A stretch of DNA of 25,960 bases from NCBI GenBank assembly GCA_043736035.1, contig JAYTDF010000039.1, forward strand, positions 1 through 25,960, read 5' to 3'. Numbering within the stretch: the stretch's first letter is position 1; each line of letters opens with the position of its first letter. The stretch comes from Candidatus Parcubacteria bacterium. Its GTDB lineage: Bacteria; Patescibacteriota; Minisyncoccia; Phycocordibacterales; CAIZLB01. This document shows positions 9,303 through 12,779 of this stretch, in pieces. The notes beneath the pieces are model-generated. The model made no database searches. It worked only from the letters and a program-made list of their open reading frames with translations, and was not told the DNA's origin. Both the position numbers and the translations under genes were made by a program.

Positions 9303-9330
9303 TTGACACAAATGTGAAATTTGATAGAAT
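9303..9330 (+). promoter_or_regulatory. Near-consensus sigma70 promoter with no protein gene downstream
   Basis: TTGACA (9303-9308), 16-nt spacer, extended -10 TG-a-TAGAAT (9322-9330). Confidence 0.7.
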
Positions 9331-9336
9331 AGAAGT

Positions 9337-9388
9337 ACAAATGGGTTGTCCCGATCGTCCAGGCCTTAAAAGCCTGGATTTACATTTT
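9337..9388 (+). ncRNA. Candidate ~50-nt two-hairpin small RNA convergent with the PemK/MazF-like gene
   Basis: Starts at the expected distance from the promoter. Hairpins GGG-ttgt-CCC (9343-9352) and TCCAGGC-7-GCCTGGA (9358-9378), then a T-rich tail. Confidence 0.45.
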
Positions 9389-9775
9389 ATTAAATAAAAT
9401 ATCTACTACTTTCAATATTATTTTAATATGATCAATTTTTGATATATATCCTATTTTCTTATCCAATCTTTTTGTATCCAAAATTCTAAGTTGAGATATT
9501 AAAGCAGATTGTTCCAGATCTTTAAGTAAAACTTTTACATAATACTTATTGTCCTTATTTTTTGTACTCAAAGGTACACCCCAAAAGATGCTATTATTAA
9601 ATTTTTTTAATATTAAAACAGGTCTTCGAAAATCTTCACCTTTACCATTTTGTTCAAAACCTATATTTTCACCCAATGAACACCAATATACCTCACCCTC
9701 ATTAATAAGAGCAACATTTTCTGATTTATCAATAATTATCTTTGTTATTATCCAATCTATAAAATATTTTACCAT
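9380..9775 (-). CDS. PemK/MazF-family endoribonuclease toxin (orphan)
   Basis: GEVYWCSLGENIGFEQNG...RPVLILK...VPLST...SALISQLRILDTKRL..KIG. Start revised to ATG 9775 (MVKYF), which has TACTAT 6 nt upstream. Confidence 0.85.
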   Translation of the reverse strand: MVKYFIDWIITKIIIDKSENVALINEGEVYWCSLGENIGFEQNGKGEDFRRPVLILKKFNNSIFWGVPLSTKNKDNKYYVKVLLKDLEQSALISQLRILDTKRLDKKIGYISKIDHIKIILKVVDILFNKM

Positions 9776-9844
9776 TCTAATATAGTAAAATAAACCCAAT
9801 AAACTTCTCATAAAGAAATTCTCAAGAAACCCTAAATTTTCCAT

Positions 9845-9874
9845 AAACAAAAAAACTACCTCGATAGTAGTTTT
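9845..9874 (-). terminator. efp terminator
   Basis: Stem AAAACTAC/GTAGTTTT with a 7-nt loop and a T-run on the minus strand, just after the efp stop. Confidence 0.6.
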
Positions 9875-10534: not shown

Positions 10535-11326
10535 TTAATTAATTTTTAATGTTTTAATAAATGCCTTAGTTAAGGGACCAAAGTATCCAGATGCTGGTCT
10601 TATATTGTTTTTGATTTGAAACTTTATTAAAGCTTGTTTGGTTTGATTTCCAAAGAAAGTAGACTCGAGTCCTAAAGATCCCAGTCCTTTTTTACTCACA
10701 ATAAACCCCTGTGAATTGAGAAATTGCTGTAGATTTTTAACTTCTGGAGCTATCATGTTAACTTTGAGGTTTTTTTGAGTATTTACAAGCATAACCGCTG
10801 AACTTGGAACAGTAGAAGGTATTTTTGTTGGAGTATTAACAGTTGGCTCAGTTTTTGGCGCAAGTAAACTTGCCGGAACATATGATGAACCTCCACCGGA
10901 TGATCCCCCTCCAGAGTAAGAAGGTGTTACAACAGGTGATGCTACCACTGGAACAGGTAATGTCCAAGTCGTTGTCACACTTGTTCCTGTTGCAAAAGAA
11001 AGCCAACCAGTATTGTCATTGTAGGCAAAGCCTGAAAGTGCACCGTTTGATAGAGTTACTCGAGAAAAATCAAAATACCCAACAGACTCACTCCATGCAT
11101 ACCCAGACAGCACACCATTAGTGTTTACAACTCCATCCAAAACTAACCAGCCAGTATTGTCATTGTAGGCATATCCTGTAACTGCAGTATTGGCAACTGT
11201 TGCATTCCTAAAATCAAACCAGCCAAGTGATTCGCTCCACGCATACCCAGACATATTGGCTGCAAAAGTTGGTACCGACAGAGACAAAGTTATGATTGCT
11301 ATATATTTTTTAAATTTAAATTTCAT
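10535..11326 (-). CDS. Secreted protein: signal peptide, four 24-aa G(Y/F)A(W/Y)xxxxG(W/Y) repeats, Pro/Ser/Gly linker, peptidoglycan-binding domain
   Basis: KK-hydrophobic-TFA signal. C-terminus EVKNLQQFLNSQGF...FGNQTKQALIKFQ..NNI...GYFGPLT is PG_binding_1-like. Confidence 0.8.
   Translation of the reverse strand: MKFKFKKYIAIITLSLSVPTFAANMSGYAWSESLGWFDFRNATVANTAVTGYAYNDNTGWLVLDGVVNTNGVLSGYAWSESVGYFDFSRVTLSNGALSGFAYNDNTGWLSFATGTSVTTTWTLPVPVVASPVVTPSYSGGGSSGGGSSYVPASLLAPKTEPTVNTPTKIPSTVPSSAVMLVNTQKNLKVNMIAPEVKNLQQFLNSQGFIVSKKGLGSLGLESTFFGNQTKQALIKFQIKNNIRPASGYFGPLTKAFIKTLKIN
10994..11251 (-). repeat. ABAB intragenic repeat, 144-bp (48-aa) period
   Basis: Identical 21-mer CCAGTATTGTCATTGTAGGCA at 11007-11027 and 11151-11171. 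Protein units SGYAWSES.G and .G.AYNDNTGW alternate. Confidence 0.85.
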
Positions 11327-11453
11327 TACTAGATTATACTATATTTATTTTTTATAATGTACTTTCTATTTTACCTCACCCAAGAGTTCTTTGTAAAGTG
11401 AATGCAGAAAACTTGTATTTATTATCTATCGTGTGATATTATGAATTAATAGA

Positions 11454-11496
11454 GAAAAAAGGTTCTCTGCTCGTTGCAGTGTCAGGCCCTTTTTTC
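11454..11496. terminator. Long A-tract/T-tract-flanked hairpin (bidirectional terminator-like)
   Basis: GAAAAAAGG (11454-11462) pairs with CCTTTTTTC (11488-11496); inner CTGC/GCAG stem. Confidence 0.45.
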
Positions 11497-11525
11497 GCTT
11501 TTATACTAAACTATTTTTATAAAAT

Positions 11526-11553
11526 TTGACAATAAAATATATTTTGCTAAAAT
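11526..11553 (+). promoter_or_regulatory. Near-consensus sigma70 promoter with no protein gene downstream
   Basis: TTGACA (11526-11531), 16-nt spacer, extended -10 TG-c-TAAAAT (11545-11553). Confidence 0.7.
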
Positions 11554-11557
11554 ACTT

Positions 11558-11674
11558 ATGTAGTCTGAAGGACAGGAAATTAACAATCGGCTTGCTGCGG
11601 ACTTTGCTTTATGTAAAGTACTTATGGATGAAATGTTGCCATTTTATGGTAATTGCCGTCATCCCAGATTATAT
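11558..11674 (+). ncRNA. Candidate ~115-nt multi-stem non-coding RNA
   Basis: Closing 10-bp stem 11558-11567/11665-11674; hairpin 11601-11619; stem 11626-11631/11659-11664 enclosing hairpin 11635-11653. G.U pairs work on the plus strand only. Confidence 0.55.
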
Positions 11675-11683
11675 CTAAGTTCA

Positions 11684-12100
11684 CTACTCGTTATCGGGTA
11701 GTGTTTTTAGTTTCTTATAGTGCATTGTAACAATTTCAAAATGATCATCTATAAATTCCAAAACTATCCTTATTGATGAAACATCAATTGTTGAAATATT
11801 TTTTAGGAAATAGTGTCTATTATTTATAGTTTCAAATGAGGTGTAACTATTTAACACATTTTCTATATTATCTATAATAATATGCAATCGATATAAGATA
11901 TACTCAACATCATATTTTTCAATAAGTTCAGCTGACTTACTTTCAACAAAATGCTTTAATGCTCTTTTGGAAATGAATACATCTTTATTATTCAATTTAC
12001 AAACGAAAACCAACCCTAAAAAGTCAGCGATTAGTTCACCTTTTTGTAAATTAAGGTATTTAAATACCAGTTTTTTAACTGTGATTATATTTTTAGTGAT
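11684..12100 (-). CDS. Small hypothetical protein, candidate BECR-fold (Barnase/EndoU/Colicin/RelE-like) RNase
   Basis: Pattern vfis..alkH......helix...yflK......irivle......eIvTmH. Frame is open from 12100 (ATC) to TAG 11684; the ORF track calls TTG 12013. Fold assignment is by eye. Confidence 0.5.
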   Translation of the reverse strand: MTKNIITVKKLVFKYLNLQKGELIADFLGLVFVCKLNNKDVFISKRALKHFVESKSAELIEKYDVEYILYRLHIIIDNIENVLNSYTSFETINNRHYFLKNISTIDVSSIRIVLEFIDDHFEIVTMHYKKLKTLPDNE

Positions 12101-12164
12101 TTACAAATTTTACCAAAACCAACATAAAATCTTCATAAAAAAATTCTAAAGTTTTACCGAAGTT

Positions 12165-12779
12165 TTAATCAAGTATAAACCACCCATGATTCTTTGCATA
12201 TGTCCGTAACTTTTTATTCGGATTCACCGTATATCGGTACGTCGCCATTTTCAAAAGCGGGATATCAGAATTATGATCACTATAGGCAAAAGAACCCTCA
12301 AAGTTATACTTGGTCAACCTCTCAACCTTTTCATCCTTATAATTAATCTTTCCCAATATCCTACCAGTATACTTATTATTTTTTACCTCAAGCTTTGTGG
12401 CTGTGTACTCAGGAATATGAAAAAATTTGGCGGCATACTTTGCAATCGGTTCAAACGAAGTTGTGACCAAAATAACCTTCTTATCATATGTGTTATGTTT
12501 TTCCAACTCTTCTACTGCTTTGATATTTTTAATACCATCAAATTCTGTAAAAATAAATGCTTTCATTATCTTATCAAGTCTACTCACCTCCACACCCTCA
12601 AAAACCTTAGCCAAAGTCTTCATTTTCTTATCAATGTTTCGAGCAAAAAACAAGATAAATTTATAATAAAAAAAACGGTACGATGAAATAATTCTCCTAC
12701 GTCTTAAAACGCTCAAAACTATTTCATAACTGTTTTTTGTGATCAGTGTTTTATCTAAATCAAAGAATACATAACTCAT
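12165..12779 (-). CDS. HAD-IB family phosphatase (SerB/PGPase-like)
   Basis: FFDLDKTL (DxDxT), LVTTS (motif II), K.E.., AYSDHNSDIPLL...VNP. Confidence 0.9.
   Translation of the reverse strand: MSYVFFDLDKTLITKNSYEIVLSVLRRRRIISSYRFFYYKFILFFARNIDKKMKTLAKVFEGVEVSRLDKIMKAFIFTEFDGIKNIKAVEELEKHNTYDKKVILVTTSFEPIAKYAAKFFHIPEYTATKLEVKNNKYTGRILGKINYKDEKVERLTKYNFEGSFAYSDHNSDIPLLKMATYRYTVNPNKKLRTYAKNHGWFILD

Follow-up and report, generated by a model that had tools for sequence, protein, structure and literature searches.

In the 25,960-nucleotide contig JAYTDF010000039.1 (assembly GCA_043736035.1) of a Candidatus Parcubacteria bacterium, which was analyzed at its full length and is called the window here, we found a module of about 620 bp that consists of a minus-strand gene for a protein with a predicted PBECR/RelE fold and a convergent plus-strand gene for a structured small RNA (sRNA). 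The RNA is a real, conserved and previously undescribed family, and a convergent RNA of this kind accompanies every homologous protein locus that has enough downstream DNA. The protein is predicted to be a metal-independent endoribonuclease of the BECR fold. The reading that we favor, with about even confidence, is that the RNA is an antitoxin that binds the RNase directly, much as in type III toxin-antitoxin systems, and that the toxin fold, the RNA and the gene layout are each new. A preliminary description of this region, made from the sequence alone, had proposed an undescribed structured noncoding RNA, and this is now strongly supported by the lack of an Rfam match, by strong covariation in alignments of 30 and 48 sequences and by the conservation of a promoter and a terminator.

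The plus-strand unit sits between the start of a minus-strand gene for a peptidoglycan-binding protein (10535-11326) and the end of the small minus-strand open reading frame (ORF). It is composed, in order, of a promoter, about 125 nt of strongly folding sequence and an intrinsic terminator. The promoter (11526-11553) has TTGACA (11526-31), a 16-nt spacer and an extended -10 element, TGcTAAAAT (11545-53), and matches the consensus at 11 of 12 positions. The sRNA (11558-11710) was delimited by a full-length covariance-model match, and its transcription would start at about 11558-11560. These 153 nt fold with a minimum free energy of -48.6 kcal/mol (z = -4.8), a value reached by none of 200 shuffled sequences. 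The reverse complement of the RNA core was unremarkable (z = +0.8) and, therefore, the strand asymmetry that had been ascribed to G.U pairs valid only on the plus strand is real. The promoter had been recognized in the preliminary description, as had the paired ends and the hairpins ACTTTGC/GTAAAGT, GGATGA/TCATCC and TTGCCAT/ATGGTAA, all of which are present in the plus-strand fold. The 3' end had to be revised. The RNA was thought to be about 115 nt long and to stop about 10 nt from the TAG of the minus-strand gene; instead, it enters a terminator (11682-11708, plus strand) made of a 9-bp stem (11682-11703) with a UUAU loop and a UUUUU run (11704-08). This terminator, which overlaps the end of the ORF, gives a transcript of about 150 nt. 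The sRNA and the ORF overlap by 27 nt here, and the terminator covers the last eight codons and the TAG. It had also been stated that no sense gene lies downstream, and none was found on the plus strand of the window.

The pattern of covariation indicates that the RNA is a pseudoknotted three-way junction (P1, P2 and P3/P3b) locked by a CAG:CUG helix and a CGGC:GCCG pseudoknot. P1 pairs a 5' strand, ATGTAGTCTG (11558-11567), with a 3' strand, CAGATTATAT (11665-11674). Between P1 and P2 lies the junction J1/2 (11568-11600; AAGGACAGGAAAU..AAUCGGCUUGCUGCGG), which is near-invariant in 48 sequences. Both strands of the P1.1 helix (CAG 11573-75 with CUG 11595-97) fall within it, as does the CGGC (11588-91) that forms the pseudoknot with GCCG (11655-58); both helices show compensatory changes. 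P2 (11601-11619) is a hairpin of ACUUUGC (11601-07) and GUAAAGU (11613-19), and it is followed by J2/3 (11620-11625), an ACUNAU conserved in the alignment as part of GUACUNAUG. P3 with P3b spans 11626-11664. Its outer strands are GGAUGA (11626-31) and UCAUCC (11659-64), and an asymmetric internal loop, with AAU on one side and UGCCG on the other, encloses the variable hairpin P3b (11635-42 with 11646-53; TTGCCAT/ATGGTAA in the DNA). All of these elements are on the plus strand. About 40 junction nucleotides are near-invariant across the family, namely ACGACAGAAAAU, AUCGGCUUGCUGCGG, GUACUNAUG and UGCCGUC, and some members carry an optional hairpin between GAAAAU and AUCGG.

A covariance model, R1, was built from three copies of the RNA in the source genome (C39, which is the window, C99 and C69), and a second model, R2, was made later. 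The window RNA scored 168.7 bits with R1 and 136 bits with R2. In the alignment of 30 sequences, 92.7% of the cells were standard pairs and double compensatory changes were seen in 32 of the 41 pairs. When the 3' partners were slid by 1-3 columns as a control, only 33-55% of the cells were paired and 11-13 pairs had double changes. Covariation was seen in four stems: all nine modeled pairs of P1, 6/7 in P2, 5/6 in P3 and 12/14 in the terminator stem, with 99.4% of the P3 cells paired. The two peripheral hairpins vary greatly in sequence and keep their shape. P2 occurs as 42 distinct sequences among 48 and forms a hairpin of at least 4 bp in 44/48, and P3b occurs as 45 distinct sequences among 48, with a hairpin in 47/48 and one of at least 4 bp in 42. 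The pseudoknot, which involves the GCCG on the 3' side of the P3 internal loop, was paired in 191 of 192 cells. Compensatory variants of it were CAGC:GCUG (locus L051), CGGU:ACCG (L041) and CGGA:UCCG (L184 and the C54 copy of the source genome), and wobble-compatible changes were seen in L050 and L052. P1.1 varied in the same manner: in the C36/C17/C40 group (group C) it is UGG:CCA, whereas L184 and C54 have GCGG:CCGC.

The RNA does not resemble a family that is already described. A scan of the whole window against Rfam 15 gave no match at the gathering score, and when E values up to 10 were allowed, there were only three chance-level matches (E 2-7) in 11330-11800; in the preliminary description, no riboswitch, SRP, 6S or tmRNA motif had been recognized. 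ARAGORN found no tRNA or tmRNA in the window. Several other identities were considered and rejected. A coding function is not plausible because the 50-aa plus-strand frame begins inside the -35 box and the hairpin lengths vary by non-multiples of three. A hammerhead-like reading of GGAUGAAA was dismissed by eye, as the order and lengths of the junctions do not fit, and the Rfam scan showed no ribozyme family. A likeness of GCCGUCAC/GGGUGAA to the decoding site in helix 44 of 16S rRNA failed when the pairing registers were compared by eye. Finally, the RNA does not appear to mimic, or to be antisense to, another RNA encoded in the genome: the 15-nt core had no other sense or antisense copy with up to one mismatch in the 672-kb genome, and shorter motifs occurred at chance-like levels.

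The signals that flank the RNA were compared in 48 loci. In most of them, a promoter is placed 2-7 nt before the RNA. At least 10 of the 12 sigma-70 consensus positions are matched in 32/48 loci, TTGACA is perfect in 25/48 and the extended TG is present in 32/48. A hairpin with a T-run ends the RNA in all 48 loci. Because an A-run precedes this hairpin in 34/48, the terminator is bidirectional in those loci. Another bidirectional terminator-like element, AAAAAAGG...CCTTTTTT (11461-11495), was observed upstream of the sRNA promoter in the window and could stop read-through of the nuclease mRNA on the minus strand. It was also seen that the complement of the sRNA terminator encodes a conserved Lys-rich or Pro-Pro C-terminal tail of the protein (..QKxKKPP, ..KKLKTLP; for example, window 11684-11710 and L003 1620-1643). 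This stretch is under dual constraint, since the Lys codons come from the terminator T-run and the Pro-Pro from the GGTGG stem.

The association of the RNA with the protein gene was examined in 31 genome loci, 28 of which were from GTDB species genomes and three of which were the copies in the source genome. The 28 loci are all from metagenome-assembled genomes of Patescibacteria, labeled Parcubacteria, Nomurabacteria, Paceibacterota or 'Saccharibacteria'. R1 found the RNA in 31/31 of these loci (53-180 bits), on the strand opposite to the gene and abutting its 3' end. With R2, the RNA was found in all 20 metagenome loci that had enough downstream DNA. It was at the same place in 4/4 of the most divergent members of the protein family that were looked up (profile E 1e-7 to 4e-4). 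The gene and the RNA overlap by -3 to 27 nt across the loci, and by only -3 to 5 nt in about a third of them. The idea that the RNA is the partner of a BECR-fold nuclease is, thus, supported by the co-occurrence of the RNA with the gene at the homologous loci and by the fold predicted for the protein. At one locus (L024, JAYSOO010000015.1, 'Candidatus Parcubacteria bacterium isolate GFS_112'), the module is near-identical to that of the window, with the same covariance-model score and a protein that differs at three residues, and the sequence immediately upstream of the protein gene is different. The organism is probably a very close relative of that of the window.

The source genome (672 kb, 101 contigs, 88% complete) contains the module many times. 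A DNA search revealed two further copies, C99 (78% identical) and C69, each convergent with a paralogue of the protein. There were eight RNA matches and six protein matches, and nine modules when C54 is counted. Five of the modules are intact (C39, C99, C69, C36 and C17), two are divergent (C87 and C54) and two are decayed (C83 and C40). In C83 (6875-7024; L039 1501-1650), the RNA has been kept, its core is mutated to CGGUUACUACAGG with a broken G-C pair in P3, and the protein gene is down to a few 3' codons. In C40 (10363-10490; L042 1501-1628), a variant RNA stands beside a 45-aa C-terminal remnant of the protein. The flanking genes differ among the copies: a peptidoglycan-binding protein and a HAD hydrolase (the latter 65 nt from the ORF in the window), dnaK, or rluD and rplS. 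Other carrier genomes hold two to five copies. When 150 further genomes of the same order were sampled and scored with strict filters, one had the RNA, and the search did not find it in the remaining 149. The protein family is small as well, with 109 representative clusters at E <= 0.001 among 1.84 billion. Selfish modules of the toxin-antitoxin kind typically show this combination of multiple copies, a patchy distribution, sites between housekeeping genes and copies in decay.

One type of copy has a more settled position. The C69 copy of the source genome lies between an rluD-like gene and rplS, and an upstream stretch of C69-type copies, TATTAACATATTTGCGTTATTAAATCAAGC, is conserved in L003, L009, L010 and L012, about 80-110 nt before the protein gene. 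This shared stretch suggests an orthologous, vertically inherited position, unlike those of the other copies. A phage origin of the module was also considered and rejected. The 94 exact 15-mer matches in IMG/VR are about the number expected by chance, and no covariance-model match was obtained among 80 fetched loci. No homologue of the protein was found in the viral contigs of IMG/VR, PADLOC gave no match and PHROGs gave nothing meaningful.

The protein gene proved to be longer than the 109-aa frame with a TTG start that had been assumed. Homology and conservation reach upstream of that start, and the conserved open frame runs from 12100 to 11684 on the minus strand (138 codons and a TAG). Directly after the in-frame stop, the frame opens with ATC in the window and with ATC, ATT or ATA in many other loci, and this codon aligns with the ATG or GTG of other family members. 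A TGnTAAAAT -10 box precedes a non-ATG first codon by 6 nt in the window (12098-12115, minus strand) and in L002, L011, L013, L014, L021, L024, L028, L031 and L032. The window's predicted -10 element, recognized from its sequence, is TGgTAAAAT (12107-12115, minus strand), which ends 6 nt before the ATC. The mRNA is, therefore, apparently leaderless, with a non-AUG first codon and weak translation, and in the window it probably begins with AUC. Owing to this non-AUG 5' codon, gene callers start the proteins at internal Met, TTG or ATT codons, and the database entries are 114-119 aa long. The promoter of the protein gene has no -35 element. In the -35 position, about 20-60 nt upstream of the gene, two to three direct repeats, TTTCTTTAT / TCTTTAT / AACTTTAT, with a spacing of about 11-12 nt were observed in L002, L003, L009, L011-L014, L020, L021, L028, L031 and L032. 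Degenerate copies of TTTCTTTAT / AACTTTAT are found in the window (12116-12165, minus strand). The repeats may be an operator or an UP-like element, and in several group-A loci a terminator-like hairpin lies just upstream of them.

In an alignment of 37 sequences, the family is marked by two motifs, I-S-x-x-A-L-K-H-F-V-E-S-R-K and L-E-I-(C/V)-(S/T)-(I/M)-H-(F/Y)-x-K. K48, R111, H127 and K130 are invariant and H49, E52, R54, E122 and S/T125 are near-invariant (C69 numbering), with H49 within ALKHFVESR and S/T125 within EIC-S-IH or EIV-T-MH. In the sections of Iyer et al. (PMC5512222) that define PBECR, its hallmarks are a His within the N-terminal helix, along with a C-terminal Thr or Ser. H49, which would lie in the first core helix, and S/T125 appear to fit this active-site signature. 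The His...IvTmH pattern noticed earlier in the small minus-strand protein is present. Matches in Pfam were all below threshold: 24.0 bits to PBECR3 for the family member P0028 and about 24 bits to PBECR3, PBECR2 and MuF_C for the C36 paralogue (best 24.4). The gathering cut-off of PBECR3 (PF18812) is 30 bits, and the window protein itself had no Pfam match.

Structural comparison was more informative. The AlphaFold2 model (predicted local distance difference test [pLDDT] 90.4, predicted template modeling score [pTM] 0.83) has helices at 44-58 and 64-83 and strands over 87-129, and it contains the BECR core of an N-terminal helix packed on a four-stranded antiparallel sheet. When the model was aligned exhaustively to the Protein Data Bank (PDB) with VIA-align, the top 25 rows were almost all RelE/ParE-superfamily and BECR toxins, with Z scores of 4-7. 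The top matches were ParE (Z 7.0), the CdiA-CT tRNase of E. coli NC101 (6.8) and BrnT (6.2), and RelE, YoeB, YafQ, HigB and colicin D were also present. The neighbors in the AlphaFold database were PBECR3-domain proteins, DUF4258 and phage MuF C-terminal domains. Foldseek gave no match in the PDB at E <= 0.001, and a sequence search of PDB chains gave none either. It is the consistency of the list of structural matches, and not the Z values, that persuades us of the fold. The model, the exhaustive alignment and the AlphaFold database neighbors agree on the BECR/RelE fold that had been suspected.

No second ORF is conserved in the module, either upstream or downstream, when the window and the homologous loci are compared, so there is no adjacent, cotranscribed gene for a protein antitoxin. 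This bears out the earlier view of the nuclease gene as an orphan. To our knowledge, BECR RNases in conflict systems are always checked by an inhibitor that is encoded alongside them. We favor an RNA antitoxin because the RNA is the only conserved neighbor and has the stronger promoter, compared to the weak promoter and poor start codon of the protein gene; such an asymmetry is expected for an antitoxin and its toxin. In the mechanism that we propose, the nuclease would be expressed weakly, from a promoter without a -35 element and a probably leaderless mRNA that starts with AUC. The sRNA of about 150 nt would be transcribed strongly toward the nuclease gene, up to the terminator that overlaps the ORF and that appears bidirectional in most other loci. 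The sRNA would then bind the RNase directly and hold it inactive, perhaps with the conserved single-stranded GAAAAU/ACUNAUG segments acting as a pseudo-substrate. A drop in transcription, brought about by phage attack, by stress or by the locus being lost, would deplete the RNA, which we take to be labile, and so set free the RNase, which we take to be stable. A release of the toxin once RNA synthesis stops has been shown for ToxIN and AvcID. The toxicity, the direct binding, the relative stabilities and the trigger are what we infer for this module.

Several points weigh against an RNA antitoxin. Known RNA antitoxins are much simpler and much less conserved than this RNA, whose core does not differ between protein subfamilies found together in one genome. 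This sameness would not be expected if each RNA were specific for its own toxin and, thus, the core could bind a conserved cellular partner or a ligand instead. The layout that defines type III systems, with tandem repeats upstream on the same strand and a toxin of the ToxN fold, is absent. Regulation at the DNA level, suggested by the repeats that precede the protein gene, is not explained by an antitoxin. With regard to the toxin, Z does not exceed 7 in the fold matches, which is moderate, and the Pfam scores all fell below the cut-offs. The sequencing runs that hold the locus are all DNA, with no RNA run listed. In our literature search, whose coverage was incomplete, we found neither a description of this sRNA nor a report of an RNA antitoxin for toxins of the PBECR group or the RelE fold.

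Among known systems, the module works most like the type III systems and AvcID. As in ToxIN, CptIN and TenpIN, it would combine an endoribonuclease toxin with a noncoding RNA as the sole candidate antidote, the RNA is pseudoknotted and, judging from the promoters, would be expressed above the toxin, and the whole is a small selfish or defense-like module. However, it fails the testable features of type III. Toxins of that type have the ToxN/AbiQ (Kid/MazF-like) fold, whereas a BECR/RelE-like fold, unmatched in PADLOC, is predicted here. Their antitoxin consists of tandem 34-36-nt repeats upstream on the same strand, separated from the toxin gene by a terminator and processed by the toxin. The RNA described here is a single unit of about 125 nt plus a terminator, with its own promoter, a convergent orientation and no repeats seen. 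In AvcID, the single non-repeat sRNA AvcI binds and inhibits the deaminase AvcD; the sRNA is the more abundant and labile component, and the toxin becomes active when transcription is shut off (PMC10511110). This is the mechanism that we propose here, likewise with a single non-repeat sRNA and a toxin unrelated to ToxN. The differences are that AvcD is a dCTP/dCMP deaminase and not an RNase, that the gene layout is not the same and that no relation in sequence or structure was found between the RNAs.

The toxin fold itself, with similar catalytic-type His, Lys, Arg and Ser/Thr residues, is shared with the type II systems RelBE, ParDE, HigBA and BrnTA and with CdiA-CT and colicin D. In all of these, the toxin is neutralized by an adjacent protein antitoxin or immunity protein, and there is no such ORF here. 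We know of the RelE/BECR superfamily only in the company of protein antitoxins or immunity proteins. The closest neighbors in both sequence and structure are the phage BECR nucleases of PBECR3 (PF18812), which share the helix His and the C-terminal Ser/Thr. PBECR domains have been described in phage polyvalent proteins and MuF fusions, whereas the protein studied here stands alone on the chromosome of Patescibacteria, was not found in IMG/VR and scores below the PBECR3 cut-off (24 versus 30 bits). The parts of the PBECR study that deal with these domains mention no RNA partner (PMC5512222). The small hydrophobic toxin of type I is missing as well. Type I systems with 3'-overlapping antisense RNAs, such as txpA/RatA and bsrG/SR4, involve small hydrophobic peptide toxins, typically under 60 aa, and an overlap of at least 75 nt that is functionally essential. 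The convergent layout and overlapping 3' ends are common to both, but here the predicted toxin is a soluble alpha/beta protein of about 138 aa, the overlap of -3 to 27 nt is limited to the terminator region and leaves out the conserved part of the RNA. What is new is the class of structured RNA, the toxin fold that would be under RNA-based control and the gene architecture. RNAs as complex and conserved as this one usually perform a demanding biochemical job.

The type I comparison bears on one alternative, which is that the sRNA acts as an antisense RNA, base-pairing, via the shared terminator region or read-through transcripts, to the 3' end of the mRNA for the nuclease and causing degradation or a translation block, or that convergent transcription interferes with expression. 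The convergent genes and the overlap of up to 27 nt would allow this, and the bidirectional terminator of 34/48 loci would give both transcripts complementary hairpins. In the window, the hairpin is not followed by a T-run on the mRNA strand, and the mRNA may read through the whole sRNA gene to the terminator-like site at 11461-11495. However, the overlap is not conserved, shrinking to -3 to 5 nt in about a third of the loci, and the roughly 40 invariant nucleotides, the pseudoknot and the covarying helices lie outside it and are not needed for antisense action. The protein is also not a small membrane peptide, and neither the conserved 15-mer core nor its complement recurs elsewhere in the genome. 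We consider antisense action improbable, and weaker than an RNA antitoxin that binds directly. That the RNA is a housekeeping or independent regulatory RNA that merely adjoins the gene is effectively refuted by the co-occurrence data. The linkage is complete: in more than 50 loci, whose flanking genes are unrelated, the RNA has one orientation and abuts the gene in one way. An RNA that was not found in 149 of the 150 sampled genomes of the order and is multicopy in its carriers does not behave like a chance neighbor.

A stronger competitor, which we regard as possible though doubtful, is that the RNA is part of a functional ribonucleoprotein or a sensor: a cofactor, activator, substrate or scaffold of the nuclease, or a ligand-sensing or catalytic RNA that gates it, for example in a defense effector switched by a phage or a metabolite. 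In its complexity and invariance, the RNA is closer to riboswitch aptamers and ribozymes than to known antitoxin RNAs. The identity of the core across protein subfamilies that share a genome points the same way. In addition, inactive PBECR domains may serve as RNA binders, according to the PBECR sections of Iyer et al. (PMC5512222). On the other hand, a free BECR RNase without an inhibitor would be hard to tolerate in five to nine copies, and no ligand-related or defense gene is conserved nearby. The decay of C83, where the RNA core was mutated after the protein gene was lost, fits a mutual dependence of the two genes and separates neither the antitoxin nor the sensor model from the other.

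A second toxin-linked sRNA was noticed 2 kb from the module. A MazF/PemK-like gene (9380-9850, minus strand) has no protein antitoxin and is met by a convergent RNA (9303-9385, plus strand). The MazF-like toxin has eight paralogues in the source genome and homologues in 36/150 other genomes of the order. Sites linked to it in the source genome are C44:3790-3925, C83:1095-1230, C85, C87, C80 and C15. Three of the source-genome copies share a convergent, TTGACA-promoted RNA that begins with ACAAAUGGGUU(G/A)UCCC and continues into a covarying hairpin. At the 3' ends of the MazF-like genes in 10/11 loci of other genomes (L078-L088), there are a promoter-like site, a (U)ACAAAUGG(C)-hairpin, a second hairpin and a terminator. 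Judging from these sequences, this looks like a second, more widespread family of toxin-linked sRNAs. Two unrelated RNase-toxin folds, each without a protein antitoxin and each with a conserved convergent sRNA, argue that RNA antidotes are general in these reduced genomes. A more far-reaching variant of the sensor idea is that the RNA of the module is a riboswitch-like aptamer or a ribozyme, whose pseudoknotted, near-invariant core gates the RelE-fold RNase by binding to a small molecule, to a product of a phage or to a cellular RNA or protein that is conserved. Together with the MazF-linked sRNA, it would then reflect a general RNA-based control of toxins that replaces protein antitoxins in the reduced genomes of Patescibacteria. 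We think this combined proposal unlikely.

If the RNA is an antitoxin, as we favor, RNA-antitoxin control of the type III kind would be extended to the very large RelE/BECR superfamily of toxins. A separate matter is how translation is initiated in these organisms, given that AUC, AUU and AUA are frequent as first codons of mRNAs that appear to be leaderless. Finally, in view of the MazF-linked sRNA family, the use of RNAs instead of protein antitoxins may be systematic in ultra-small Patescibacteria.

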